Source: a phage. Taken from it: 64,000 bases of DNA. Made by a program: the position numbers and the translations under genes. Positions 47,319-60,595 of this stretch are shown here, piece by piece; positions within the stretch are counted from its first letter, which is position 1; every line of letters starts with the position of its first letter. Where the stretch lies: the sequence record PZ452611.1; one strand, 5' to 3'. Below the pieces are notes generated by a model. It was not told where the DNA came from. It ran no database searches and saw only the letters and a list, made by a program, of their open reading frames with translations.

Positions 47319-47501
47319 ATGAAAGGTAATATGATCCCCCTGGAAAATGTAGCGATTAATGACGCTGAGGCTATCGCCCTGGTTGAAAAGGCTATGGCGG
47401 GAGCGTTGGAACATAAAGAAGAGTACGAAAAATGGTGGTTAACCTGGCGGGGGCGGCGGCTGGAGAATTCTGCCCAAAAAATAATTTTAACTAATGGTTG
47501 A
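47319..47501 (+). CDS. hypothetical small protein
   Basis: 60-aa ORF, RBS gaggagg 7 nt upstream; first gene of the early-type cassette region. Confidence 0.45.
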   Translation: MKGNMIPLENVAINDAEAIALVEKAMAGALEHKEEYEKWWLTWRGRRLENSAQKIILTNG

Positions 47502-47527
47502 CAGCTCGGACAGTTCTTGTTATTCTT
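47499..47527 (+). promoter_or_regulatory. sigma70-like promoter
   Basis: TTGACA - 17 nt - TATTCT upstream of the 47581 start. Confidence 0.45.
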
Positions 47528-47580
47528 ATCCTCGCAAGGTGAACAACACCACACTAATTAACAGAGAGGATAAAAAAATC

Positions 47581-47778
47581 ATGAACGCCTACGGAATCAA
47601 AGTACGTCGCAGCACTCGCCAGGTGGTCACCGATCAAATGGTTTGCCAGGTGGACGTAACCATCAACAACGGGCAAGGCCTTTATAAATTTCGTCGCGGT
47701 CATAGCTATACCCTGCAACAGCTTAATCGTTGCGCCCTGACAAAAGGTCAGATCAACCACTGGTTTAATAAAAAATAA
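47581..47778 (+). CDS. hypothetical small basic protein
   Basis: ORF 47494-47778; internal ATG (M30) preceded by agagagg and A-rich spacer, downstream of promoter. Confidence 0.45.
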   Translation: MNAYGIKVRRSTRQVVTDQMVCQVDVTINNGQGLYKFRRGHSYTLQQLNRCALTKGQINHWFNKK

Positions 47779-47782
47779 GTAT

Positions 47783-47811
47783 TGACATATAGTCCGACAC
47801 CAAATACACTA
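47783..47811 (+). promoter_or_regulatory. sigma70-like promoter
   Basis: TTGACA - 17 nt - TACACT. Confidence 0.5.
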
Positions 47812-47842
47812 AAAGCACAAAAGACACTAAGAGGATAAAATC

Positions 47843-48241
47843 ATGAAAACCACTACCTTTAATTTTGATAATGCAGACTTTTCTTTTTCTGATGTCAAGA
47901 ACTGCCGCCGTGATCGTGGATTTTACAAGGCTTATAATCTGGTGGGCCTGGACGATGACAATAATTTGCACGAAGTAGCTGAGATCCGGTATTATGCCGC
48001 CGCCAGTGGGAACACTTACTACTGCGTTTTTTGGATACACGACAACAAGAACAATAAGTACGGCTATACTGGCGGCAAGGCAAGCGGTCACGGTTATGAT
48101 AAAGCTAACGCAGCACTTGAGAGCGCATTAAATGCCATGGGGATCACTGCCGACGGCTGGATCTACGAAGAAGAGTTTTTGTCGGCACTTGCTGACCACC
48201 TAGGCTATAAAAAGCACATTGTAACATGCGCCCACGAATAA
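47843..48241 (+). CDS. hypothetical protein
   Basis: 132-aa ORF, conserved UTR context aagaggataaaatcATG. Confidence 0.5.
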   Translation: MKTTTFNFDNADFSFSDVKNCRRDRGFYKAYNLVGLDDDNNLHEVAEIRYYAAASGNTYYCVFWIHDNKNNKYGYTGGKASGHGYDKANAALESALNAMGITADGWIYEEEFLSALADHLGYKKHIVTCAHE

Positions 48242-48247
48242 AAATCA

Positions 48248-48275
48248 TTGACACGCTGCAAAATTTAAGTAAACT
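48248..48275 (+). promoter_or_regulatory. sigma70-like promoter
   Basis: TTGACA - 16 nt - TAAACT, followed by 5'-UTR hairpin GGCGGG-aatgttt-CCCGCC. Confidence 0.5.
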
Positions 48276-48323
48276 AGACACAAAAGGCGGGAATGTTTCC
48301 CGCCAGCACAAAGGAAAAAGATC

Positions 48324-48728
48324 ATGAATAAGAACGTACGCCGCATCATGAACGAGTTGGCAAACGATGAAAAAATTATTGACATGCATTTGATCAACAT
48401 TTGCCGCCGTTGTGTAACATATAACAACCGCGCCGCAAAAGCGCGTGAGATGAACGCAAAAGGCACCTTAAAGCCATTCCAGGTGGTGGTAAAGGCCATT
48501 AAAGATGTAACTAATACGGCAAACCAGGTACAGGGGAACACCAACGAGAGTACCAATATTGATCCGGCTTACATCATGAAACGGATCCGGACCTGCAAGA
48601 ACAAAGAGCAAGTGTATAATGTCATAGACTGGTTGGATTCTATGGGCGATGTGGTTTACAATAGGTTTTCTGCAGCTATCGAGATCCAGCTTGACAGGTT
48701 GGACGGTAAAGTACTAAAAACTTACTAA
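48324..48728 (+). CDS. hypothetical protein
   Basis: 134-aa ORF. Confidence 0.5.
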   Translation: MNKNVRRIMNELANDEKIIDMHLINICRRCVTYNNRAAKAREMNAKGTLKPFQVVVKAIKDVTNTANQVQGNTNESTNIDPAYIMKRIRTCKNKEQVYNVIDWLDSMGDVVYNRFSAAIEIQLDRLDGKVLKTY

Positions 48729-48808
48729 GTTTATTTTTAGATGGCCTTGACTCCAGGGCCATCGATAAAGTAAACTAATCCCAGTTAAGCGAAAAAGGAG
48801 GCTTGAAG

Positions 48809-48928
48809 ATGAGCACTACACGCCAACACACAAAGGTAACGATTATCGTTTGCATCATTGGTTACATCCTGGCGCAAATGTTGATGGGTAGCGCCAATGA
48901 TTTCGCAAAATTTTTCTTAGACTTTTAA
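48809..48928 (+). CDS. small hydrophobic peptide (39 aa)
   Basis: not in >=60-aa ORF track; ATG preceded by aaaaaggagg; sequence MSTTRQHTKVTIIVCIIGYILAQMLMGSANDFAKFFLDF has one predicted TM helix; coordinates +/-1. Confidence 0.3.
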   Translation: MSTTRQHTKVTIIVCIIGYILAQMLMGSANDFAKFFLDF

Positions 48929-48956
48929 TTGACAAGCTAACTTAAATCAGTATAAT
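48929..48956 (+). promoter_or_regulatory. sigma70 consensus promoter
   Basis: TTGACA - 16 nt - TATAAT. Confidence 0.55.
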
Positions 48957-49008
48957 ACTAAGCACATAAACGGGAAAACTTCCCAGAACACCAAAAGGAG
49001 AAAACATT

Positions 49009-49359
49009 ATGAATACTTCCATCACTATGACCGCCGAAGAAAAAGCCCTGCAGATCGCCGCTCTGAAAAAACAGATTGCAGAACTTGAAGACAAGATCGA
49101 CAATTTTGAAATCGACGAAGACAAATACGACGATAAATATGATGAATGGTTGGACGAGATCTACGGCGAAATTATGATCGGAAACATTTCTTTTCTTCCG
49201 TCGCGTATCCTCAAGGAGCTAGATCCTATCGCTTACCGCTGCGGATTTAGCGACTACATCGACAGCCTGGATATTGAGGACGATGAAGAATACCAGGAAT
49301 TACAGACAGAGCTTGAAGAAGTGAAAGAAGAGCTTGCAGAACTGGAAGAAAACGAGTAA
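49009..49359 (+). CDS. highly acidic coiled-coil protein
   Basis: 116-aa ORF; very high Asp/Glu content (EDDEEYQELQTELEEVKEELAELEENE). Confidence 0.5.
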   Translation: MNTSITMTAEEKALQIAALKKQIAELEDKIDNFEIDEDKYDDKYDEWLDEIYGEIMIGNISFLPSRILKELDPIAYRCGFSDYIDSLDIEDDEEYQELQTELEEVKEELAELEENE

Positions 49360-49448
49360 ATTTATTTTTAGATGGCCTTGACTTCAGGGCCATCAATAAA
49401 GTAAACTTTAGACTGTTAACACTTAACCAATACAGAGGAGTTAAAACC

Positions 49449-49694
49449 ATGGCCGCACTAATTACCAAATATTATGCCCCTACCAACACCAAAAGCGCCC
49501 GTATCATGGTAAAAGGCTTCGGACGTAAAAAGGTGTACACCTGGGATTATTCCCTAGACATGGAAGACAACTACACCAACGCGATGACAGATTTTATTAA
49601 TGAGCTGAACACGCGGATCTTGACAAATTATAAAATTACCGATATTGCCTATATAGGGGAAGGCGGGATCTGTTTTGTCGGTATCGTCAAATAA
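49449..49694 (+). CDS. hypothetical protein
   Basis: 81-aa ORF, RBS agaggag. Confidence 0.5.
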   Translation: MAALITKYYAPTNTKSARIMVKGFGRKKVYTWDYSLDMEDNYTNAMTDFINELNTRILTNYKITDIAYIGEGGICFVGIVK

Positions 49695-49770
49695 ACTGTT
49701 TTTTCGGTGGTCCTGGTAGCAGGGCCATCTATAAAGATAGTTTATCAGCACAATGAAAGGAGAAAGTAAC

Positions 49771-50124
49771 ATGATCAGCGGGGCAAGTTTTATTATTGGC
49801 GCTATTGCTACGGCTTTAATTGTAAACAAGATCCAATCCAAAAACGAAAAAGAGAGCAACGCGCTTACAGAATACCCATTTTGGGTATTCAACGACAATG
49901 AAGACTACATTATCAAGTACAAGGATGAGAAAGGGGACCAGGTAACACCGAGACCGATCCCAGCTTACAAGATGCAAGAAACATTATACCGCTTAAAGGC
50001 TGGCGGCGCAAAAATCGTAGACTTTTGGGGATATGATTGCAAGGATCAGGAGACTATAAAACGTCGTATCCGGGCGATTCAGGCAAATATTGAGATCAGT
50101 AAAGGGGGCGTTTATGAAAATTAA
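49771..50124 (+). CDS. membrane-anchored protein
   Basis: ORF 49753-50124; ATG at 49771 preceded by aaaggagaaagtaac; N-terminal TM helix ISGASFIIGAIATALIV. Confidence 0.5.
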   Translation: MISGASFIIGAIATALIVNKIQSKNEKESNALTEYPFWVFNDNEDYIIKYKDEKGDQVTPRPIPAYKMQETLYRLKAGGAKIVDFWGYDCKDQETIKRRIRAIQANIEISKGGVYEN

Positions 50125-50311
50125 TTTCGAAAAAATTGTAAAGCGCCCCCACGATTCCGAAGAGCTGCCGGAACGCCGCCAGCGTAACAATAAACTGAAT
50201 AAACCGAAAAGGTTCGGGAAGATCTGGAGAAATCACTATGATCGCAAATTACCGGGCCTGCTTTTGGAACGTGAACGACAGGCGGAACGATACCGCCACA
50301 AAGACAAATAG
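50114..50311 (+). CDS. small basic protein
   Basis: ORF 50090-50311; ATG at 50114 preceded by aaaggggg; Arg/Lys-rich. Confidence 0.4.
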   Translation: MKINFEKIVKRPHDSEELPERRQRNNKLNKPKRFGKIWRNHYDRKLPGLLLERERQAERYRHKDK

Positions 50312-50319
50312 CAACCAAC

Positions 50320-50350
50320 GCCCCGCCATTGTGCGGGGCTTTTTATTTCT
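50320..50350 (+). terminator. putative intrinsic terminator
   Basis: GCCCCGC-cattgt-GCGGGGC hairpin followed by TTTTTATTTCT. Confidence 0.6.
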
Positions 50351-50492
50351 ATCCCGCCGATAGCGCCCCTGGTTGGCCCTACAAGCGCCATAAAGGCCCC
50401 TACCTATGCAATCCCCTTTCTTAACCTGAAAACAGCGTCTAGGGCCGTTTTATGGCGTTAAAAATATTATTGACAGTAATTCTATTTAAAGC

Positions 50493-50521
50493 TTGACACC
50501 TTGGGATAGTCCGGATATACT
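50493..50521 (+). promoter_or_regulatory. sigma70-like promoter
   Basis: TTGACA - 17 nt - TATACT; a second TTGACA lies 23 nt upstream. Confidence 0.5.
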
Positions 50522-50556
50522 AACCACATCAAAGCAAGAAGGAAGGAGTAAACGCC

Positions 50557-50817
50557 ATGCGTAAATTAAAAAATTTTGATAAAGTAGATGTTGTCCTGAA
50601 TAATTTTTACTACTGCAATAATAAAGCCGTTTGGTGGCGTGATAGTTCCACCGATAAAGTTAAAGCGCGCTTTCTCCAAGGGCACTGGCAAGGCCGCCCA
50701 GTGATTAAAATCTCGGGGCAATTGGTAGCGTTTAAAAATTGCCGCCGTGTTGATGACGTTGAAGAGATTCTAAACATTTTACGCCACAATAATTTAAAAA
50801 ATAGTGTTGACAAGTAA
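50557..50817 (+). CDS. hypothetical protein
   Basis: 86-aa ORF, RBS aaggaagga. Confidence 0.5.
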   Translation: MRKLKNFDKVDVVLNNFYYCNNKAVWWRDSSTDKVKARFLQGHWQGRPVIKISGQLVAFKNCRRVDDVEEILNILRHNNLKNSVDK

Positions 50818-50834
50818 GTCTCAATAAGTATACT
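50807..50834 (+). promoter_or_regulatory. sigma70-like promoter
   Basis: TTGACA - 16 nt - TATACT followed by hairpin GGCGGG-aaaactt-CCCGCC at ~50845-50863. Confidence 0.5.
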
Positions 50835-50891
50835 TAAACACACAGGCGGGAAAACTTCCCGCCACTAACAAAGAAAATAGGAGAAAATATC

Positions 50892-51515
50892 ATGACCACC
50901 GTTAACATTACCACAGGTTACAATTTAGCTTTCGACGTGCTGACCGACGAACAAAAAGAAAAAGCCGTTGAAATGGTCCGAGAAAGAGAAGAACACAGCG
51001 GGGATAACTTTTTTGCAGAAAGTGTAATTGAAGACTATAAAGAATATGTCTTTCCAGAGTATGGCCTTGAAGATACCAAGGTACATTGGTCCGGCTTTTG
51101 GTGCCAGGGTGACGGCGCGTCAATCAGTGCGGAAAACGTGGATTTAGAAAAATTCTTGCGTAAAGTAAAGGCCCTGACCAAGTTCCGATCAATTCGTCAC
51201 TTGTTCGGCACAATGCACGATGGCGAGCTATCCGCAAGTGTTGAGCGTGATCCATATAGCCGCTATAGTCACGAAAACACTGTAAGCGGGTACATCGATA
51301 CTACATGGCTAGACCTGACCGCCAAACAAGAAAATAAAGTGGAAGATCTGGAAGAGCTGATCACCGAGACGGTACGGGAGCTATCCCGCAAGGTTTACGT
51401 AGACCTGGAGGAGGCCTATCTAGAACAGTTCACTACCGAAAACCTGATCGGCCTTATTGAGGCCAATGATTGGCGGTTTGATGTGGATGAATATGGAGAG
51501 ATGAGTTTTTCATAA
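50892..51515 (+). CDS. hypothetical acidic protein
   Basis: 207-aa ORF; acidic; conserved-looking WSGFWCQGDGAS segment; no family recognised. Confidence 0.5.
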   Translation: MTTVNITTGYNLAFDVLTDEQKEKAVEMVREREEHSGDNFFAESVIEDYKEYVFPEYGLEDTKVHWSGFWCQGDGASISAENVDLEKFLRKVKALTKFRSIRHLFGTMHDGELSASVERDPYSRYSHENTVSGYIDTTWLDLTAKQENKVEDLEELITETVRELSRKVYVDLEEAYLEQFTTENLIGLIEANDWRFDVDEYGEMSFS

Positions 51516-51523
51516 ATAAAGTG

Positions 51524-51551
51524 TTGCAATAATCTAAAAACCTGCTATATT
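51524..51551 (+). promoter_or_regulatory. sigma70-like promoter
   Basis: TTGCAA - 16 nt - TATATT followed by hairpin GGGGCAA-gacgtt-TGCCCC. Confidence 0.45.
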
Positions 51552-51604
51552 AAAACTCAAGGGGCAAGACGTTTGCCCCCACACAAAACAAAGAGGAAAA
51601 CATC

Positions 51605-51985
51605 ATGAAAAACACTACCAAAGCTATTTACACCGTTATGTTTAACCTGGTTACCTTTCGCGAGGATATGAAAGATCTTCCGCGTGAAACAGTGTGCGAC
51701 CATATCGAAAACTATCGCAAACTAATCAAAGAGTTGCCTTTAAAACGTGATCAGTATGCGGCTAACGCCATGCTTAATGCCATGATCAAAAAGATGATCC
51801 AGTGTGATTTAATTCTAGCCTATGATTATGCGGGTGGTCGTTTTGCAGTATACAATCAGCCCGTGCCCGGTATGGGCACCATCGAAGAATTGCACGCGCT
51901 CAATCTAAAACAAGATGTGTGGGATAGTATGCCCCGCGTGGTGGTGTGGGCAGAAAGCGGGAAGATTTACGGCGATAGTTTTTAA
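51605..51985 (+). CDS. hypothetical protein
   Basis: 126-aa ORF with conserved UTR context aaagaggaaaacatcATG. Confidence 0.5.
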   Translation: MKNTTKAIYTVMFNLVTFREDMKDLPRETVCDHIENYRKLIKELPLKRDQYAANAMLNAMIKKMIQCDLILAYDYAGGRFAVYNQPVPGMGTIEELHALNLKQDVWDSMPRVVVWAESGKIYGDSF

Positions 51986-52049
51986 TCAGGTAACAGGCGG
52001 CATATTTGCCGCCTTATTGTTAAACAAAACTGCAAAAGAGGTACATAGA

Positions 52050-52421
52050 ATGGAATTTATTATTTTGGCTGTATTGGTTGCCTTGTTTAACGCCTGGATC
52101 GCTGGCAAGATGGGCAGATCCGCCTTTTTATGGTTTATTATATCTATTTTCCTGGGGGTGGTTGCAACTATTGTATTGGTTATCCTTGCAATTGTTGACA
52201 AGGGGAATAATAGAAAGGGTAAAGTATTTTCAGACCTGTACGACGCTCAAACGTTTGTCAACGCCTATTATAGTGATCTTCCAGTCTCCCTACGCTGCAG
52301 CTTGGCACAACAGGTTTTTGATGAGGCTAAAACCAGAGATCAAGCCCATGAGATATGTTTAACTGAGGCGGATCGCCTATTTGAGAGGAATAGAAAATAT
52401 GTGGGCCAACCGTTTAAATAA
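52050..52421 (+). CDS. membrane protein (two TM helices)
   Basis: ORF 51915-52421; ATG at 52050 preceded by aaaagagg; MEFIILAVLVALFNAWIAG and FLWFIISIFLGVVATIVLVILAIV hydrophobic helices. Confidence 0.5.
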   Translation: MEFIILAVLVALFNAWIAGKMGRSAFLWFIISIFLGVVATIVLVILAIVDKGNNRKGKVFSDLYDAQTFVNAYYSDLPVSLRCSLAQQVFDEAKTRDQAHEICLTEADRLFERNRKYVGQPFK

Positions 52422-52644
52422 TGCCACGTTAATTAATCCCTTTAGTGAAGATTTGAAGCCAGCCGCCTGGCGTGACGGATTCAATAACGAACGCTTTATT
52501 TTCAGGCCTGATCTTGAGGAATTTTATAACAATGGATCGAACAACAGCGGAGATAATTTTTCTTGTGGTGTGTGTCGTGATAGGACTCCTGGGGGCCATT
52601 GTAGATCGCGTCACTACTACCAGAAGGAAAGGGGGAGACGATGA
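52399..52644 (+). CDS. hypothetical protein (frame ambiguous)
   Basis: ORF 52381-52644; ATG at 52399 with gagagg RBS; overlaps alternative-frame 41-aa TM peptide 52532-52657; low-complexity composition. Confidence 0.3.
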   Translation: MWANRLNNATLINPFSEDLKPAAWRDGFNNERFIFRPDLEEFYNNGSNNSGDNFSCGVCRDRTPGGHCRSRHYYQKERGRR

Positions 52645-52900
52645 CAACCAAGGATAAGCCATGCACCGATAAGGTGCGCCGCGTTATGGTATGGCTTGAG
52701 ATTATCGCCCTTGAAATATTGCTAGGCGTAGGGATGTACTTTATCGCTGTAAGTAACTAAGAACGGCCCCCGATCATGGGGGCCTATCTTTTAAAAAAAA
52801 ATTTTCTTCCGGGGTGTTGCAATCCGGTCCGGAATGTGGATAATAACAATCAACGGGGAGCTAATCCCCACCACCACAAAAACCAGAAAGGAGAAACAAA

Positions 52901-53101
52901 ATGAGCAACAATATCCGCGTTATTAACTTCAAAAAAGAAGAAAAAATTGCCGTGCTGATTGACGGTCAAGAAATCTTCAAGGGCGACTATGAAGATCATC
53001 AAACGGCGATTAGTATCACTCGCGTGATTGGTTACCATAATTTCTACCCCCAAGGCGCTGAGGCAGCAGTTAAACGAATCAAAGAGATTGTAGGCCTGTA
53101 A
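52901..53101 (+). CDS. hypothetical protein
   Basis: 66-aa ORF, conserved UTR context gaaaggagaaacaaaATG. Confidence 0.5.
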   Translation: MSNNIRVINFKKEEKIAVLIDGQEIFKGDYEDHQTAISITRVIGYHNFYPQGAEAAVKRIKEIVGL

Positions 53102-53192
53102 AATTTATTTTTAGATGGCCTTGACTTCAGGGCCATCAATAAAGTAAATTTAAACCCTGTTAAAATAATCAGTGCAAAAAGGAGTAATGATC

Positions 53193-53492
53193 ATGTTTAT
53201 ACCCGCCAATAATCTTTATTTCTTTGATGGTCAGATCGTAGACGGTGTGGAAGTGGAGATCACTGGGTGCCCTGGTGGTCAGGCTATGACTTTTCGGAAT
53301 AATGCCTTTGATGATTCTCGTATCGTTATGAGAATGGAAGTTACAAAGCTGGACGACAAGAAAACGCTCATTGACTATTCCGTGAAAGATCATCCAGACT
53401 ACCACATGATCTATGGTGATTTGTGTATTGTTGACCGTGACAAGGTGGGCGGCATTGTGATCGCTATTGTGAACGATGTTTTCTCTGAATAA
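53193..53492 (+). CDS. hypothetical protein
   Basis: ORF 53172-53492; ATG at 53193 8 nt after aaaaggag. Confidence 0.5.
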   Translation: MFIPANNLYFFDGQIVDGVEVEITGCPGGQAMTFRNNAFDDSRIVMRMEVTKLDDKKTLIDYSVKDHPDYHMIYGDLCIVDRDKVGGIVIAIVNDVFSE

Positions 53493-53550
53493 TTCCGGCA
53501 AATGATGCAAAATAAGGCCCCTAGCAGGGCCTGCAGCGATATAATCACAT

Positions 53551-53584
53551 AAAGGCTATGCGGTTGCATGGCCTTTATTATTTT
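53551..53584 (+). terminator. putative intrinsic terminator
   Basis: AAAGGCTATGC-ggtt-GCATGGCCTTT hairpin followed by ATTATTTT. Confidence 0.5.
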
Positions 53585-53716
53585 AGCGTTACAGCGTCCC
53601 CAAGGCGCTTAAAAAATTTTTAAAGAAGTACTTGCATCAAGTCCTACAATATGGATAATAGGACGTGTCAGGGGGGCGGCCCCCAATCATTAACCGGATA
53701 GATAGGAGTTAAAATC

Positions 53717-54001
53717 ATGGCTATTGTCACCGTTGGCGATGTAGTGGAAATGGAAGCAAAATACTTAAAAGCGGGTATGCATATCCTACGGAATGATCAA
53801 GAATTGTTATTAACGATGGTAGACTATAATCCCGGCCAGGATTATCCAAGCATCGACATACTTTTTGAGTATGTTGATGAAGAATTGAAAGAGGATGAGG
53901 CTTATCAGGGTGAATTCTGCAATTTCTTTTGCCCTGATGAGGTTGTAAAAGTTATCTATCAACCTGGCGTACCTTTCCCGCTGCACGCTATCAATAAATA
54001 A
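53717..54001 (+). CDS. hypothetical protein
   Basis: 94-aa ORF, RBS ataggag. Confidence 0.5.
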   Translation: MAIVTVGDVVEMEAKYLKAGMHILRNDQELLLTMVDYNPGQDYPSIDILFEYVDEELKEDEAYQGEFCNFFCPDEVVKVIYQPGVPFPLHAINK

Positions 54002-54055
54002 ACCTGGCGGGGCCGAAAAGGCCCCAATTATGAAAATAAAGAGAGGTAAATCATC

Positions 54056-54289
54056 ATGATGGAACAAATTAAACGCGCTGAGGCTATTAATGGCAATGTG
54101 ATCTATTTTGTCAGCAAAAACGAAAAAGGCGTACCATATGCGGCGGTAATAGTACAACCTGACGGCGATTATTGGTTTACTGTATACGGATCTTATTCTT
54201 TCGGGCGTCCGGTTCATGATAGAATTTTGAAAGTAGCGAATCCGACCGGGAAAAATATCACAGCAGAAAAATTTTTTGAAAATAGTTGA
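54056..54289 (+). CDS. hypothetical protein
   Basis: 77-aa ORF, RBS agagagg. Confidence 0.5.
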   Translation: MMEQIKRAEAINGNVIYFVSKNEKGVPYAAVIVQPDGDYWFTVYGSYSFGRPVHDRILKVANPTGKNITAEKFFENS

Positions 54290-54313
54290 CATGACCATAT
54301 AAGACTGTAATAT
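54286..54313 (+). promoter_or_regulatory. sigma70-like promoter
   Basis: TTGACA - 16 nt - TAATAT followed by hairpin GGGGGGC-aacaa-GCCCC. Confidence 0.45.
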
Positions 54314-54365
54314 ATAAATCAAAGGGGGGCAACAAGCCCCACCAACCACAAAGAGGATAAAAATC

Positions 54366-54545
54366 ATGGCTATTATTGCAAAGACTGAGATCGTAGGCTT
54401 AGATTCTATTCTCCTCGCATATGAGGAAGCTATAGAAATGTATGTGGTTTCCTATGGTGAATATATCCGTGAATATAAATCTATTGATCTGGCTTTTGAA
54501 TGTTATATTCGCCAGGTTAATAAAGCGTACGATGATTATCGTTAA
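54366..54545 (+). CDS. hypothetical small protein (59 aa)
   Basis: not in ORF track (just under 60 aa); conserved UTR context aaagaggataaaaatcATG; coordinates +/-1. Confidence 0.4.
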   Translation: MAIIAKTEIVGLDSILLAYEEAIEMYVVSYGEYIREYKSIDLAFECYIRQVNKAYDDYR

Positions 54546-54635
54546 AATAGCTTGACAACAAACAACCATCTAACAAAGCATAATACATAAGGCGGTGGAA
54601 TGGTCCGCCACCTGGAACAAGAAGAGGAAAACAAG

Positions 54636-54740
54636 ATGAAACAGAAATTAATTGATGCGGTGATCCTGGTTATTGCCCTGGGTATTGGCCTGATTGCAAC
54701 CATGTCTAATATGATCTTGTCTTCCAACGGTATCGGGTGA
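54636..54740 (+). CDS. small hydrophobic peptide (34 aa)
   Basis: ATG preceded by agaagaggaaaacaag; MKQKLIDAVILVIALGIGLIATMSNMILSSNGIG; coordinates approximate. Confidence 0.3.
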   Translation: MKQKLIDAVILVIALGIGLIATMSNMILSSNGIG

Positions 54741-54749
54741 GGTTGGCAA

Positions 54750-54965
54750 ATGATCACTAACAAAACAGGCAAAACAGAATTTTTACGCAACTTACAGATC
54801 GGCAAGCCTGAGATCTGGTATTGCACTAAAACACCACGTGACGAAATGAAAGACTTCACCGCCACGCTGCAACGGGTAAAGATATCCATCACGCAGAAAA
54901 AGGCCTTATTAGTGGTGGAAGGTGAGATCCCCCAAACCGTTGTTATAGTTGAGCGTACAGCATAG
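54750..54965 (+). CDS. hypothetical protein
   Basis: 71-aa ORF. Confidence 0.45.
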   Translation: MITNKTGKTEFLRNLQIGKPEIWYCTKTPRDEMKDFTATLQRVKISITQKKALLVVEGEIPQTVVIVERTA

Positions 54966-55056
54966 TTTAATTTATACCGATACCCGAAAATTAACCAACA
55001 AAGCATAAACAGGCGGTTACCGCCGCCTTAAACGTAGCAGAAAGAGGATAGACACA

Positions 55057-55341
55057 ATGAAAAAGATGATCGCAGTGGTTGCCCTGGTTGTTGGACTTAA
55101 TGCGCCTGTAATGGCTAAAGAGCTGGCAAAAGAGGTTAATCTAACGGATATTCATGCCGTCAATCAAATCGGGGTTACTTATCGCTTATGCCTTGCCGCT
55201 AAAACTTTTAATGACGGTACAACAGAGTACTACGGATTCGAGGGTATCCGGTGCGGTGAGCTTGCTCGCGACCTTAAGGAAGATTCAGACCTGGAGGATC
55301 TGCCCATAACCGTGAACGGGAAAACTTACGTGAACCGTTAA
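55057..55341 (+). CDS. secreted/periplasmic small protein (signal peptide)
   Basis: 94-aa ORF; N-terminal MKKMIAVVALVVGLNAPVMA signal-peptide-like segment; RBS aagagga. Confidence 0.5.
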   Translation: MKKMIAVVALVVGLNAPVMAKELAKEVNLTDIHAVNQIGVTYRLCLAAKTFNDGTTEYYGFEGIRCGELARDLKEDSDLEDLPITVNGKTYVNR

Positions 55342-55343
55342 CC

Positions 55344-55478
55344 ATGAAAAAGATAATCATCACCTTGGGGATTGTGGTGGCAATATTGGCGCTCTTCCCC
55401 CTTATGGTTAGGTATGTGCTGATCAGTGTTATTCTAGTGGTCAGCGATCTGGTGTTATATATTAACTCATTGTTTTAG
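55344..55478 (+). CDS. small hydrophobic peptide (44 aa)
   Basis: ATG directly after stop of upstream gene; MKKIIITLGIVVAILALFPLMVRYVLISVILVVSDLVLYINSLF; coordinates approximate. Confidence 0.3.
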   Translation: MKKIIITLGIVVAILALFPLMVRYVLISVILVVSDLVLYINSLF

Positions 55479-55486
55479 GTGCGATA

Positions 55487-55678
55487 ATGACCACTGATGA
55501 AGCTGTAAAAGTGTTGGCGGTATTGAGATATCATAATCAAACAAAGGTTATAAACGATCCTGATTATGTTGACTCAAAGCGTGAAGATGAGACATTGACC
55601 GCAATATGGATTATTCAAGAATTGCTAAAGCGCATGACAGAGAAAAACCGACCGGACTACATAGGCGAAAAAATATAA
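55487..55678 (+). CDS. hypothetical protein
   Basis: 63-aa ORF. Confidence 0.45.
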   Translation: MTTDEAVKVLAVLRYHNQTKVINDPDYVDSKREDETLTAIWIIQELLKRMTEKNRPDYIGEKI

Positions 55679-55694
55679 TATTTATAAACTACAA

Positions 55695-55726
55695 AACAGG
55701 GCTTGCAATGGTCCTGTTTTTTGTTA
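55695..55726 (+). terminator. putative intrinsic terminator
   Basis: AACAGG...CCTGTT hairpin followed by TTTTTTGTT. Confidence 0.45.
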
Positions 55727-55805
55727 TACTTATTCCACGGCAGGCACCTGGCGACGGGGGGAGACAATCACCGGGGGGTGCCTGTCATATAAGAACTATA
55801 AAAAC

Positions 55806-55834
55806 CGTTGACATCTGCCAGGGGGTGGGGTAAC
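55806..55834 (+). promoter_or_regulatory. sigma70-like promoter
   Basis: TTGACA - 17 nt - TAACAT followed by hairpin GGGCA-aaag-TGCCC. Confidence 0.45.
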
Positions 55835-55890
55835 ATTTATCTTGAAGGGGCAAAAGTGCCCACACAACAACCAGAAGAGAGGAAAACATT

Positions 55891-56163
55891 ATGTCAAGCT
55901 GGATTAATCAAGAAGTCGAATCACGTTTTAATGCTATTTGGGATCTCATCGAAAAAGAGGACGGAACATCAAGCCCTTACCTCAATAATCTTGAATTCCA
56001 TTTTGTGGAAGCGATGAACGCAGAACATGATCACGAAGGTGGTGCGGACGAGTTCGCTAAAAGGTATGGCTTCAACAATGCCAACGAAATGATCGAGGCG
56101 GTTGTACTCCAGGCTGAGGAAGATTATCAATTAAAAACGCTTGAATTCTGCCGCCGCAAGTAA
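55891..56163 (+). CDS. hypothetical acidic protein
   Basis: 90-aa ORF, conserved UTR context. Confidence 0.5.
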   Translation: MSSWINQEVESRFNAIWDLIEKEDGTSSPYLNNLEFHFVEAMNAEHDHEGGADEFAKRYGFNNANEMIEAVVLQAEEDYQLKTLEFCRRK

Positions 56164-56223
56164 TAAGATAATGACACGGGCCAAAAGGCCCACTAATCAG
56201 AACCACACAAAGAGAGAAAGAAA

Positions 56224-56442
56224 ATGACAACCCGTAAAATTAAAGTTGTTTGCATTGAATCTACTGGGGGCGCTTTTGTAGTTGGTCAGGAATATAATGC
56301 GGTTTTAATGGGTACGGATTGGAAGGTTAAAGGCCTTAATGGTTACGAGTACGGCACTACTTGCGGCTTGCGTGGTCGAATCGGATACGTGAGTTTAGAC
56401 AATAAAGAAAAATTTGTTTTCGACACCCTTGTGAGTAAATAG
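56224..56442 (+). CDS. hypothetical protein
   Basis: 72-aa ORF preceded by hairpin GGGCC-aaaa-GGCCC and agagagaaagaaaATG. Confidence 0.5.
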   Translation: MTTRKIKVVCIESTGGAFVVGQEYNAVLMGTDWKVKGLNGYEYGTTCGLRGRIGYVSLDNKEKFVFDTLVSK

Positions 56443-56519
56443 CATGAATTGCTAAAGACTGATCTGCGAACTGCTGTATTATCAACTAATCAAAACGAAC
56501 CACATAAAGAGGAAACATC

Positions 56520-56783
56520 ATGAAACGTCTGGATCAGCTTAAATTAGTTCAGTACATGGCCTACAGAATTCTTGAAGTCCAAAAAGGTAGCAAAAAAGAG
56601 GTTTGCGAGAAAGCTTATAAGATCTTTACCCGCAAAAAAGATGACTGGATGCTACGCCAGACCAAAAAGGCTGACATCTTGGGGTACCTGGAAGAAGAGA
56701 TCCGACTTGAAGAGCAAGAAGAGATCCGCCGCAGTGAGGCAGATTATCAGGCAGCTTGGGAAAACTGGATGAGTAACAAATAA
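56520..56783 (+). CDS. hypothetical protein
   Basis: 87-aa ORF, conserved UTR context aaagaggaaacatcATG. Confidence 0.5.
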   Translation: MKRLDQLKLVQYMAYRILEVQKGSKKEVCEKAYKIFTRKKDDWMLRQTKKADILGYLEEEIRLEEQEEIRRSEADYQAAWENWMSNK

Positions 56784-56852
56784 TACAACAAGTTGCACGA
56801 TCAGGGGGGCAATAAAGCCCCTTGATCACATAAAAATTATGCTATCCTTGGT

Positions 56853-56881
56853 TGACAAGGATCGGCAGTTTTGCTATATTC
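56853..56881 (+). promoter_or_regulatory. sigma70-like promoter
   Basis: TTGACA - 17 nt - TATATT upstream of ORF 56930. Confidence 0.5.
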
Positions 56882-56929
56882 TTTTTTGAAGGGAAGTTGT
56901 AAGAAAATTAACTAAGAGGTAAAAACACC

Positions 56930-57349
56930 ATGAACATTAAATCTAATAATCCGGCATATAGCTTTGATAACGCTTTTTGTCACGGTCCGGCGGCGAAAGG
57001 ATTCGAAATCGATGGTAAACTAATTATTGTCAATGTTGACGGGGAAGAGGTTGCAGTATATCCGGTGGCAGACGTTAAAAGCCGTTTGCAATGCCGCATG
57101 GATGTTACCGCCTACCAGCTTGATCCGGTCCGCATAGTTGCCCTGGTCCTGGAGGAAGAGATCAAAGCCATGCATCATAGCAATAAGTTTATCGGTGACG
57201 CGCAAGATAATATGAAGGTATGCCGCTATAAAGTTAATGAAGTGCTTAAAGAATACGGCTTCAAAGATCTGATGATCAAGCGTGATGAAAAATTCCGTTA
57301 TCGTAACGACCTGGCAAATCGAATCTATGAAATATACGAATCATTATAA
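56930..57349 (+). CDS. hypothetical protein
   Basis: 139-aa ORF, RBS aagagg. Confidence 0.5.
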   Translation: MNIKSNNPAYSFDNAFCHGPAAKGFEIDGKLIIVNVDGEEVAVYPVADVKSRLQCRMDVTAYQLDPVRIVALVLEEEIKAMHHSNKFIGDAQDNMKVCRYKVNEVLKEYGFKDLMIKRDEKFRYRNDLANRIYEIYESL

Positions 57350-57367
57350 TTTCTTAACTAAACTATC

Positions 57368-57396
57368 AGGGGCTTTAAAAGGCCCCTTTCTTTTGT
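57368..57396 (+). terminator. putative intrinsic terminator ending the early-type cluster
   Basis: AGGGGC-tttaaaa-GGCCCCT hairpin followed by TTCTTTTG. Confidence 0.6.
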
Positions 57397-58329
57397 CTGT
57401 ATTTCTCCTACCACAAACGGCCCAGCCTGGCAAGTGGAATAATTGACTAGCCAGCAATTACCAACACTGTACAAATATACATATAAAATAACTATTGCAT
57501 AATCTTTCATCTTGTGGTAGCAGGGCCATTTTTACACGTTTTCCTTCCAAAATTGCACGTAATGCAGCTATTGCATAAAATTTAACCTGATGCACATCTT
57601 CAATAGCTTGTCAACAACTAAAAATCTTTATAAGTCATACACTTACATAACCACAAAAGCGTGTTCTACGTGAAAAATCGAGTATAACTATAGCCGCCAG
57701 ATCTCAGAATTTACGTACGCTCACCATTCTATAGTCTGCTAAGTATTTATTCCAACCATAGAATAACAGAATAGTCAATACCTGCATAAAATAATTATTC
57801 GTGTAAACTGCATAACATAAATCAGCCGGGGTGTCAACATTTTTCGTAAACGGCTCGAAATTATCACTGTGAGCTATCATAAACAGAGAAATCTTTAGTC
57901 GTCTAATGTTTACTGTACGTTACTATACTAACTGGAATCATTAGATGACTAATAAAAAGATAAGAAATCATTAACAATGCAATTGTTTTATTCATAACAA
58001 TAAGGCAACTATGCAAACGAATGGCATGGCGCGACGGAGTCGCGACATAATATAAAAGCAGTAACCATCACCCCCGTGATAGTTTGTCTGCAAACTATTA
58101 ATCAGATCATAGTTGCCTTGTATTTAGTTAATCATGACATAAACTCAGGCATAGCCTTCGTCTCGAGGATGTTAACAAGCAAGGCAACTATAGATCTTCT
58201 AATAGTTGCCCTGCTTTTATATTATGTCATAGAAACACCCGAAGGGGTGACCAAAGGTCACCTGGCATAGCCAGTGAAATATTGTAAACAAGTTAATTAT
58301 TATCATGCAAACGAATGGCATGGCTTATC

Positions 58330-58500
58330 ATCTCTGTGTAAATAGTTTGTTTGTAAACAGTTTATACGTGAACAGTTAGCTGTGTAAACTATCAGGCATG
58401 TAAGCTATTGAGCATGTAAACAGTAAAGGTCGTGAACAGTAAGCGAGCGAATAGTAATGGCGTGAACAATGACAGCGTAAACAGTCAGGCATGTCAATTA
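58330..58500. repeat. iteron-like array (about 11 direct repeats, period ~15-16 bp)
   Basis: GT(A/G)AAC(A/T)(G/A)T cores (gtgtaaatagt, ttgtaaacagt, cgtgaacagt, gtgtaaactat, atgtaagctat, atgtaaacagt, cgtgaacagt, gcgaatagt, cgtgaacaat, gcgtaaacagt, atgtcaatta) at regular ~15-16 bp spacing in a non-coding stretch. Confidence 0.65.
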
Positions 58501-59953
58501 TGTTCAGTGTGTCACCATTATGTCATATTGTGTCAGACAAGTTTTTCTCCTCTTTGTCAAGTGCTGCATGAAAAATTTACAATCTGGTATGGTAGCATTT
58601 TTGCGGCCCTGTTTACATTCAGTACTGTATGTATAAGCCTTGTTGTGTGGGCGCTTAGACGTCTAGACGGTTGGAAGTCTGCAGGTCAATATCTAATCTA
58701 TTGGTTGCTAACTATATCCCACACAAATAGTAAGAAATGCAATTGTTATATGCGTAAACTGTAACTCATGTTATCAATCCCTGTATGGATCGCCAGTGGT
58801 GCGCATAATAGGTATTATGTTAAATTGCCAGTAATGATAACTATTCTCACAGTGATAGGTATTCTCATTCAACCCCACAAGATAGGTTGCAAATGTTGTG
58901 CCACTGTGTGAACGGCCTCGCCTATTAATTTGCCTCACTGCCTCGATATTTGAGAATTATTATAAGAATGAGAAGTATTCCCATTTCGTCCGCCTGGCAG
59001 CACTCCTGTAGGTCAGGTCAAAATCGGGAGAGAACTGGACCTGTTCAGATATTTCTGGCTGGCTCTTCAGGTCTGTGTGGGAAAAGCCGACCCCTCCGGC
59101 GGCGGGGAGGGGGTCAATTAAAAAATTTACGGGGCATATGAAGCGCTCTTCAGGTAAGGCATGTATTATGGGATGAAACCCTCTTCAGGAAATGATATTT
59201 GTGGGTGTGATATTTGCTGGAAAGCTAGATATGACTGGACTCCTGGCGGGGCAGGGGTAGTACAGACAGGGGAAATATGGGGGATGTAGTTGGGTAAATT
59301 GATCAGGCAGGTAGAGTATGGAATATGTTACGAGTATGTTAAATATGGAGGGTGAATATCTGCAGGATTTGTGTGTAAAATCAAAGACTTAAGTGGTGTT
59401 GTGGTATTTTCTATAAATAATTCAAGTTTAATAGGTGATATTTGTCCCTATCCACTTTGTGTGGTAAACAGATTCAGATGAGATTGGTTTACGAGTGTAT
59501 ACATAATATACAAATTAAAGATACAAGAAACCCCCCTCCCCCTTCGGCTACCATTCACCTTTTCCTCTGACTGGTACTTAAACACTTATTCAGACTCTTC
59601 AGGTTATCACCCATATATCATATGGCAGTGACTGGTGTCCTCCGGCCCCTCTTTCGTCACCCGTCCGCTTCGCCATGCTAATGCCATAGCCAATGGTTCG
59701 GTTGTTCACCCTGTTCACTCAGGTGTATCTCCATACCCCTTCAAACCGAAGAGAACAGAAAACCCGAATTACTCGGTAAAAGAAAAGAGAAGAACTTAAT
59801 TTTATCAGGATAAGCAAGAATGTCAAGGCATGACTGCTCACTAAACAAGCAAACAGTCATGTGTGGGAGGTAAGTGATTGTGGTGGTAGGAAATTTAGTT
59901 GAAAGATGTGTTATAGGTGCTCCCAGCACTTTAGCCGGGTAGCTAATTGTGTG

Positions 59954-60169
59954 TCAGTCCAGCGGTTCATCCTCTACTTCACTGAAATCAATGTTCATGG
60001 TCTCTTCCCAACCATCGATCTCAGCACAAGAGTGAAGTTCTTTAGGGTTTACTCCCAAAGCCTCAGCAACAGAGTCTATATTTAACACCTCTGGCAGGTA
60101 TGATTCATCGAATTCAAGGTAAATCAGGCCACGAGTGTTGTCAGCCCCACCAAATATTTCTATCTTCAT
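59954..60169 (-). CDS. hypothetical acidic protein
   Basis: ORF 59954-60235; internal ATG (M23) preceded by agaggag chosen as start. Confidence 0.4.
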   Translation of the reverse strand: MKIEIFGGADNTRGLIYLEFDESYLPEVLNIDSVAEALGVNPKELHSCAEIDGWEETMNIDFSEVEDEPLD

Positions 60170-60289
60170 GAAATCTCCTCTGGAAATGAGAGTGTGAACA
60201 GGGTTTATACGTTCCAATGCACTGGAATTATGCACGTTTGCCTCTTCAGGCCATGCTTTAGCATGAGGAACCTGTGTGGGCTCGGTGCT

Positions 60290-60595
60290 TCATAGTCTAC
60301 CACCCCTGAACTCTTCGTGCTCAGGCATAATAGAGAACCAGATATCTACGATGTCCTCCCACGTCAGGTCATCAGCCTCAGGATCTATCTGGAGCGAAGA
60401 TGGAGAATCTTCAGAATCGAAGTTTTCCTCTTTCGCTGGCTCAGCCAAGGGACATATAGTCACTCCTTTGGATGTCTCTTCAGATGCATGTGTGTTTATC
60501 ATGTTCCACCCGTGAGTATTCCTGCAACAGCTGCTATGGACGTAATGATCATCAGGATCACCACCAAAACTTCGGACAATGTTTTCATTGTGCAC
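60290..60595 (-). CDS. hypothetical acidic protein
   Basis: 101-aa ORF on - strand, GTG start with poorly spaced RBS; uncertain. Confidence 0.3.
   Translation of the reverse strand: MHNENIVRSFGGDPDDHYVHSSCCRNTHGWNMINTHASEETSKGVTICPLAEPAKEENFDSEDSPSSLQIDPEADDLTWEDIVDIWFSIMPEHEEFRGGRL

Follow-up and report, generated by a model that had tools for sequence, protein, structure and literature searches.

We analyzed five small open reading frames (ORFs) with predicted membrane segments at positions 48809-55478 of a phage DNA, sequence record PZ452611.1. The whole stretch analyzed, 64,000 nucleotides (nt) long, is called the window below. From 48000 to 56000 the window is ~100% identical to the reverse strand of Escherichia phage V5/rV5 (DQ832317, genus Vequintavirus), and the five ORFs sit among small genes 164-238, which form a long leftward array. 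A comparison over 11 kb shows five single-base indels and one mismatch between the window and DQ832317, and none of these falls in the five candidates, which are as follows.

48809-48928, + strand: gp193 (ORF193), 39 amino acids (aa), predicted single-pass membrane peptide with the N-terminus inside; in GenBank, PHROG 16391.
52532-52657, + strand: hidden ORF, 41 aa, in the +1 frame of ORF182; transmembrane (TM) core IIFLVVCVVIGLLGAIV, then a charged tail.
52641-52760, + strand: gp181 (ORF181), 39 aa; in GenBank, PHROG 13629.
54636-54740, + strand: gp173 core, 34 aa (46 aa in GenBank, from 54600); the PHROG 14631 profile is 34 long.
55344-55478, + strand: gp170 (ORF170), 44 aa, two hydrophobic stretches; in GenBank, PHROG 16005.

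A preliminary description of this DNA had presented five hydrophobic peptides here as new ORFs under the annotation threshold. Four of these already had GenBank annotations and a published description as membrane proteins. The GenBank coding sequences are ORF193, ORF181 and ORF170 at the positions above and ORF173 at 54600-54740, and Table S3 of the rV5 paper (2013) lists gp193, gp181, gp173 and gp170 as "membrane protein, 1 TMD" (one transmembrane domain) by TMHMM and Phobius (PMC3606486). PHROG profiles match gp193, gp181, gp173 (34 aa) and gp170 end to end with E-values of 8e-23 to 2e-32; the functions of these four families are not known. The coordinates given earlier for the 39-, 41-, 34- and 44-aa ORFs, all on the + strand, are exact, and the 41-aa ORF does lie in an alternative frame to 52399-52644. 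The remaining peptide described there, said to be 24 aa long, is really an internal ATG at 52686 (its position was given one base off) within the 39-aa gp181. As relatives we used nine other vequintaviruses (85-96% identity), four short extra loci, three Stephanstirmvirinae phages and six metagenome contigs.

The best 19-residue mean Kyte-Doolittle hydropathy of the five ORFs ranges from 2.08 to 2.94. The window contains 256 ATG-ORFs of 24-50 aa in its six frames, and just 5.5% of them have a value of at least 2.0. On the + strand between 44 and 60 kb, 6 of 34 such ORFs reach 2.0, and the candidates are five of those six. Their uncharged hydrophobic cores span 17-20 residues with charged flanks; gp181 has a basic N-terminus and two Glu inside the TM core. 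At 34-44 aa, all five fall within the size and segment range of small membrane proteins (≤50 aa, one membrane-spanning hydrophobic segment). The expectation of one TM helix in each peptide was thus borne out as far as the presence of a hydrophobic segment; gp170 has two such stretches, for which a hairpin is a possible alternative to one helix.

A good ribosome-binding site (RBS) had also been described for each ORF. Two sites are referred to by position below.

48796-48801, + strand: Shine-Dalgarno (SD) sequence AGGAGG of gp193; AGGAGG or GGGGG in all relatives.
52516-52521, + strand: SD-like GAGGAA 5' of the hidden ORF, -6.2 kcal/mol; TTTT (52522-52525) follows immediately.

The sites of gp193 and gp181 are strong. 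AGGAGG stands 7 nt before the gp193 ATG with an SD:anti-SD energy of -11.6 kcal/mol, and gp181 has -10.7 kcal/mol. This value belongs to the 39-aa form of gp181, whose start codon is present in all relatives, and compares with -4.1 kcal/mol for the internal ATG. The gp173 site is ordinary (-6.0 kcal/mol, the local norm; mean -6.6 over 18 neighbouring genes). For the other two ORFs the description held less well, with the hidden ORF's SD unusually far from its ATG and gp170 without any SD (+0.3 kcal/mol). The gp170 ATG lies 2 nt past the gp171 stop, which indicates translational coupling.

In relatives, gp193 has a constant start, stop and length, and 113 of 113 phage records carry it at full length (tblastn). 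The corresponding count for gp181 is 119 of 119 records. Synonymous and nonsynonymous variants were counted in each ORF's own frame; the p-values come from a simple neutral expectation applied to non-independent sequences and are approximate. The counts were 14/10 for gp193 (p=3e-5), 14/9 for gp181 (p=1e-4), 25/26 for gp173 (p=1e-4) and 20/36 for gp170 (p=0.04). Among the variant counts of the five ORFs, the synonymous excess is confined to the proposed frames, and pooled pN/pS (nonsynonymous to synonymous variation) is 0.19-0.42 in frame and ≥0.68 out of frame. As negative controls we took ORF187 (50345-50461) and ORF180 (52801-52926), small GenBank ORFs that are not hydrophobic. In relatives they lack a start or contain frameshifts or internal stops, and they are not annotated there; both are probably not genes, judging by this decay. 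Since they are broken at the same divergence, the intactness test discriminates. By these comparisons the five ORFs would be more than chance ORFs, being intact in relatives and showing a synonymous excess in the proposed frame only, with the non-hydrophobic controls broken.

The hidden ORF required a separate comparison with the gene that it overlaps.

52399-52644, + strand: annotated ORF182, 81 aa; protein conservation limited to the N-part, ~52399-52545, ~49 aa.

Among ten complete genomes the segment 52360-52790 is free of indels, so the frames are directly comparable. The start and stop of the hidden ORF are identical in all ten, and substitutions in its frame are conservative (MDRTT[A/T]EIIFL[V/A][V/M]CVV...). 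The ORF182 frame is conserved for ~49 residues (MWANRLNN...EEFYNNGSNN) and changes radically after that; ORF182 ends 8 codons sooner in 7 of 10 relatives. Selection changes frame at the hidden ATG. Upstream of it (52399-52531) the ORF182 frame has 14 synonymous and 18 nonsynonymous variants (p=8e-4) and the hidden frame 3 and 29. Downstream of 52532 the hidden frame has 17 and 18 (p=0.002) and the ORF182 frame 7 and 29, a neutral ratio. A concatenated query found the ORF182 N-part and the hidden ORF in ~119 records, all vequintaviruses and always in different frames. From these patterns we conclude that ORF182 comprises ~49 conserved residues and an unconstrained tail produced by read-through of the overlap, and that a separate gene for a predicted 41-aa membrane peptide overlaps it. 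A 60-aa form of the hidden ORF, starting at GTG 52472 or ATG 52475 as in JGI calls, was rejected, as the 3/29 count shows the hidden frame to be unconstrained upstream of 52532.

The hidden ORF is not annotated in rV5. Phage Gotham is the only one in which it is annotated, as a 41-aa hypothetical protein, and this protein is one of just four relatives found in a database of 5.8 billion protein clusters. No match to the hidden ORF was found in PHROGs, Pfam or NCBIfam.

Downstream, gp173 and gp170 stand in two small gene modules with the following neighbours.

54750-54965, + strand: gp172, 71 aa, constant downstream neighbour of gp173; 87-93% identical in ESCO5, muut and 92CQ.
55057-55341, + strand: gp171, 94 aa, usual upstream partner of gp170; Sec-type signal peptide MKKMIAVVALVVGLNAPVMA|KE.
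55693-55720, + strand: terminator-like hairpin 3' of gp169, at the end of the gp173/gp170 unit; 11-bp stem, then TTGTTATACT.

gp173 is exactly 34 aa long in the rV5 window and in all 13 homologues. It occurs with two allelic N-halves, MKQKLIDAVILVIALGIGLI and MLEKIFTVVVVGMALSVGVV, and the C-terminus ATMANMILSS(N/H)GIG is common to both. The second allele was also found in three Stephanstirmvirinae phages, ESCO5 (Phapecoctavirus), muut (Justusliebigvirus) and 92CQ, where it is mostly unannotated. In these three phages, as in rV5, the gp173 homologue lies directly upstream of the gp172 homologue. We rejected the 46-aa GenBank form as the conserved unit; its extra 12 upstream codons are confined to rV5, bov25_3 and Phage 203.

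gp170 is 44 aa in every homologue and was found in 155 records, phapecoctaviruses among them; its length and hydrophobicity are maintained at 52-64% identity. Its junction with gp171 is TAAccATG or ATGA, and in ESCO5 the two genes overlap as ATGA. The gp171 protein has two conserved cysteines and ~80% identity with the homologues of phapecoctaviruses; together with the Sec-type signal peptide, the cysteines suggest a secreted early protein. Its homologues are ≥71% identical except for P0058, which is partial and divergent (52% over 67% of the query). The AlphaFold2 model of gp171 has three strands and a helix with a predicted local distance difference test score (pLDDT) of 79, confident in 1 of 5 runs. 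Foldseek found no match to this model in PDB at an E-value ≤0.001, and a sequence search of PDB found nothing. SYGMH1 carries gp170 with its own RBS and has no gp171; Murica carries gp171 and has no gp170. Judging by this distribution, gp173 and gp170 are mobile, dispensable cassettes subject to mosaic gain and loss.

Taken together, the five ORFs are likely to be real genes for inner-membrane micro-proteins of 34-44 residues, placed in an accessory "early" array rich in sigma-70 promoters, with the hidden gene separate from ORF182. That small membrane peptides are encoded here, as the preliminary description proposed, is well supported by the hydrophobic cores with charged flanks, the in-frame purifying selection, the intact ORFs in 113-155 phage records and the earlier predictions by TMHMM and Phobius for four of the five. 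The peptides would leave the ribosome and then insert in the inner membrane through the signal recognition particle (SRP) to YidC or SecYEG. From the charge distribution, gp193, gp181, gp173 and gp170 are predicted to be N-in/C-out and the hidden peptide N-out/C-in. Their action would be non-catalytic and rest on helix-helix contacts with larger membrane proteins of the host or phage, which is how bacterial small membrane proteins and Gp11 of phage PhiNM1 (PMC11237401) work. They could be dispensable factors of host takeover or exclusion; the hidden peptide probably works with the ORF182 N-domain. Accessory micro-proteins of the inner membrane that bind host or phage membrane proteins are the most likely description, and no target can be inferred. 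The roles in division, transport or superinfection exclusion that had been suggested are pure analogy.

Several points weigh against this interpretation. The relatives are close kin (85-96% nucleotide identity) and non-independent, and the p-values are approximate. Purifying selection on gp170 is weak (p=0.04) and its SD is absent. The spacer between GAGGAA and the hidden ATG at 52532 is ~10-12 nt, which is unusually long. The hidden frame is altered at homopolymer runs in 6 of the ~20 sequences inspected, so its stand-alone form is not indispensable. In JeffSchatz and "Campylobacter phage D#" an extra G swaps its acidic tail for RR. Conservation in relatives therefore held in that the ORFs are intact, and fell short for the hidden ORF, which is frame-shifted in two GenBank records and four metagenome lineages. 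Mass spectrometry of rV5 covered virions only, and the translation and membrane location of the five peptides are predicted; a literature search for vequintavirus expression data, ribosome profiling or infected-cell proteomics found none. Pfam, NCBIfam and PHROGs searches with all peptides and neighbours gave only PHROGs of unknown function, and all family and fold searches were empty.

The frame alterations include natural fusions. A search with the ORF182 N-part found four clusters of 85-aa fusion proteins from metagenome lineages, which arise at two homopolymer runs.

52557-52561, + strand: T5 run; natural 1-nt deletion in two backgrounds, P0006 and P0007 (85 aa).
52591-52595, + strand: G5 run; natural 1-nt deletion in two other backgrounds, P0005 and P0011 (second 85-aa fusion type).

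Through each 1-nt deletion the ORF182 N-part runs on into the hidden frame, and the stand-alone peptide becomes shorter. One contig additionally joins the N-half of the hidden peptide to gp181. P0006 was found on 7 contigs from several samples, and its fusion is the sole frame-breaking indel in coding sequence. The remaining indels in the contigs checked are apparently intergenic or near ribosome-binding sites (they were not mapped gene by gene), and the neighbouring genes are called at normal length. Sequencing error is unlikely to explain the P0006 fusion and could still lie behind the single-contig fusions. Because independent lineages fused them, the ORF182 N-domain and the hidden TM peptide probably cooperate.

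The fusions raise the question of whether ORF182 and the hidden ORF form one unit. In its broad form the idea is a split or recoded gene made up of the ORF182 N-domain and the hidden TM peptide. Most vequintaviruses would use either low-level +1 frameshifting at GAGGAA-UUU-U to make the membrane-anchored form or two assembling polypeptides, and homopolymer deletions would have hard-wired the fusion in several wild lineages. We regard this as improbable. If it were true, the homopolymer tracts would be an evolutionary switch between a split and a fused early membrane effector. In its strict form the two ORFs are one recoded gene, with a programmed +1 frameshift at UUU_U (52522-52525) or in the T5 run, and here too the odds are poor. 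The same low odds apply to what would follow from it, a membrane-anchored product of ~86 aa with the 41-aa peptide not made alone.

Some observations do fit a programmed frameshift. The selected frame changes from ORF182 to +1 at ~52532, UUU can re-pair at +1 at both T runs (52522-52525 and within 52557-52561), and the first T run is preceded at 2 nt by an SD-like GAGG. This placing of GAGG before UUU_U is like the prfB arrangement. The junction is fixed by 1-nt deletions in four natural lineages, none of which has the opposite shift, and the SD of the hidden ORF is badly spaced for independent initiation. Against it, the 0-frame A-site codons UAU and UCU are neither stop nor rare, no known stimulator of +1 slippage is present, and ATG 52532 is invariant. 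It was because of the missing slow A-site codon and the invariant ATG that we rated frameshifting so low. The hidden frame is already better conserved between the ATG and the T5 run (T-T-A/T-E-I versus S-G/D-R in the ORF182 frame), so the main shift cannot take place at the T5 run. The T5 and G5 fusions delete different parts of the helix, so no single frameshift product is reproduced. The AlphaFold2 model of fusion P0006 is uninformative, with a pLDDT of 50 and only the TM helix visible.

A second alternative is that some of the ORFs, or even all five, encode no functional protein and persist through close kinship, or are translated only as spacers or leaders (gp173 for gp172, the hidden ORF for gp181). 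The 85-96% identity of relatives, the absence of a known function, the tight packing with short gaps or overlaps with neighbours, the weak selection signal of gp170, its absence from Murica and the truncation of the hidden ORF in some lineages would all agree with this. We nevertheless consider it very unlikely, as ORF187 and ORF180 are disrupted at equal divergence and the synonymous excess is specific to the proposed frames. In addition, gp173 keeps its 34-aa length, TM character and C-terminal motif over two strongly diverged alleles and two subfamilies, and gp170 keeps its length and hydrophobicity at 52-64% identity.

That the peptides control lysis (as holin, antiholin, pinholin or spanin-like components, the ORF182/hidden ORF overlap being analogous to lambda Rz/Rz1) is highly improbable: holins are typically small TM proteins with charged tails, a gp183 homologue is named "putative holin" in BASEL records, and the +1-frame overlap recalls Rz1 in Rz, but genes 170-193 lie in an early array behind sigma-70 promoters far from lysin gp89 and putative holin gp129 (PMC3606486), the hidden ORF has neither a lipobox (V-V, V-M or A-M before Cys) nor a basic signal-peptide N-region, ORF182 has no TM segment (best 19-residue hydropathy -0.15), and gp170 is absent from one viable phage.

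The reading as separate accessory membrane micro-proteins also has to be placed in the architecture of the array, of which three more features were recorded.

48727-48777, + strand: copy of a 51-nt intergenic hairpin repeat, immediately 5' of gp193; -26 kcal/mol, z -6.8.
52050-52421, + strand: gp183, 123-aa membrane protein with 1-2 predicted TM helices, a context gene annotated "conserved membrane protein".
52765-52784, + strand: strong intrinsic terminator-like hairpin closing the gp184-gp181 unit; 8-bp GC-rich stem, T-rich tail.

The rV5 paper described the array region as mainly small ORFs and proposed a transcription unit "10-1-238-164" with sigma-70-type promoters (PMC3606486). In the window, a sigma-70 promoter of perfect consensus begins one base past the gp193 stop, and the Murica record annotates a terminator at the position matching the hairpin at 52765-52784. 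gp183 is the first gene of the cluster gp183-gp182-hidden ORF-gp181 and is essentially an ORFan, with 7 relatives among 1.84 billion representative proteins, none of them informative. Further upstream, the rV5 paper (PMC3606486) and contig annotations identify gp189 (50090-50311) as homologous to T7 gene 1.1 (PF08200), which fits the early-gene identity of the array. GenBank ORF188 overlaps gp189 in another frame and is probably intact only through this overlap.

The 51-nt repeat occurs in four copies (48727-48777, 49358-49408, 49693-49743 and 53101-53151), with a partial copy near 57515. The copies other than that at gp193 stand before gp191, gp190 and gp178. The repeat folds into a two-tier hairpin of ~21 bp (-20 to -26 kcal/mol, z about -6 to -7), and compensatory changes in a diverged copy preserve both stems. 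It includes TTGACT-N18-TAAACT. The U-run lies on the 5' side and the A-run on the 3' side, so the repeat is no + strand terminator. Possible roles are RNase III processing, as at the sites between the early genes of T7, and phage-specific promoter or operator function. An Rfam search of 47500-60500 matched no family, the repeat included.

Other observations concern the annotation of this region and of related records. Compared with DQ832317, two single bases are missing from the window (at 53243 and 53280), and ORF178 and ORF177 merge into one 106-aa ORF at 53172-53492. Relatives annotate a single ~99-aa ORF where DQ832317 splits the two, and the split in GenBank is probably a sequencing artefact. 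About 20 "Campylobacter phage" records (MG0656xx, UNVERIFIED) belong to vequintaviruses and share 92-94% identity with rV5; almost certainly these are E. coli phages under a wrong label. The 2.6-kb region at ~57352-59957 was termed non-coding in the rV5 paper (PMC3606486). It contains GTAAACTATCAGGCATGTAAGCTAT-like direct repeats of ~25 nt (58384-58778), which may represent iterons or an origin.

The early regions of phages contain many very small genes without a known function, some of which have turned out to inhibit host envelope machinery with precision. The present analysis sorts the small ORFs of rV5, with the five hydrophobic ones probably real and ORF180 and ORF187 probably not. Three gene models are corrected, in that gp173 would be 34 aa, the ORF182 tail non-coding, and a hidden 41-aa gene would overlap ORF182. 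Two conserved modules, gp173-gp172 and gp171-gp170, are common to subfamilies. The preliminary observation was largely correct and mostly known; the additions are the hidden overlapping gene and its fusions, the corrected gene models and the cross-subfamily modules. No new principle is revealed. The genes make up a short, well-defined set of candidates that could enter screens for toxicity, localisation and two-hybrid interaction; the phage group concerned is used in O157 biocontrol and therapy.

One close comparison is with bacterial small membrane proteins, which have ≤50 aa and one TM helix (for example AcrZ, MgrB and YohP) and are inserted through SRP/YidC/SecYEG after release (PMC12648545). 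The phage peptides share the size (34-44 aa), the single hydrophobic helix, the basic cytoplasmic end and the lack of a catalytic domain, and would be expected to bind larger membrane proteins and to use the same insertion route. Unlike the bacterial proteins, they are phage-encoded and limited to one genus (two subfamilies for gp173 and gp170), and Pfam and NCBIfam searches revealed no host small protein with a similar sequence. The type I toxins Hok, TisB, Ibs and Ldr, discussed in the same paper (PMC12648545), are likewise very hydrophobic peptides of 20-50 aa, and gp170 resembles them especially. The phage genes differ in lying within polycistronic early units of a lytic phage. For the toxin families Hok/Gef, Ldr, Ibs, TisB and ShoB there was no Pfam or NCBIfam match, no Rfam match in 47500-60500 and no evident antisense-RNA partner.

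Phage T4 has a superinfection-exclusion pair of a membrane protein, Imm, and a periplasmic protein, Sp. Similarly, gp171 (94 aa, predicted to be secreted) and gp170 (44 aa, membrane) are adjacent and apparently coupled in translation, resembling an early gene pair directed at the envelope. Unlike Imm and Sp, each occurs without the other, gp170 in SYGMH1 and gp171 in Murica. No peptide, nor gp183 or gp171, matched Imm or Spackle in Pfam or NCBIfam, and the gp171 model had no fold match in PDB. A Spackle-like role of gp171 was rejected as unsupported for want of a significant Foldseek match.

In phage lambda, Rz1 is embedded within Rz in the +1 frame. The hidden ORF likewise encodes a small, putatively membrane-targeted protein in the +1 frame overlapping ORF182, and the two products are probably linked in function, as the natural fusions suggest. 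Unlike spanin genes, the hidden ORF lacks a lipobox and ORF182 a TM segment, and both lie outside the lysis cassette.

Among characterized phage proteins, Gp11 of Staphylococcus phage PhiNM1 is an early small membrane protein that binds MurG and DivIC (PMC11237401). The genes described here differ from it in having no homology to it and, at least for gp170, in being dispensable in nature, and a role for them is drawn by analogy. Like Gp11, they are early-region phage genes for small membrane proteins with no recognisable domain, and this likeness makes a comparable role plausible.

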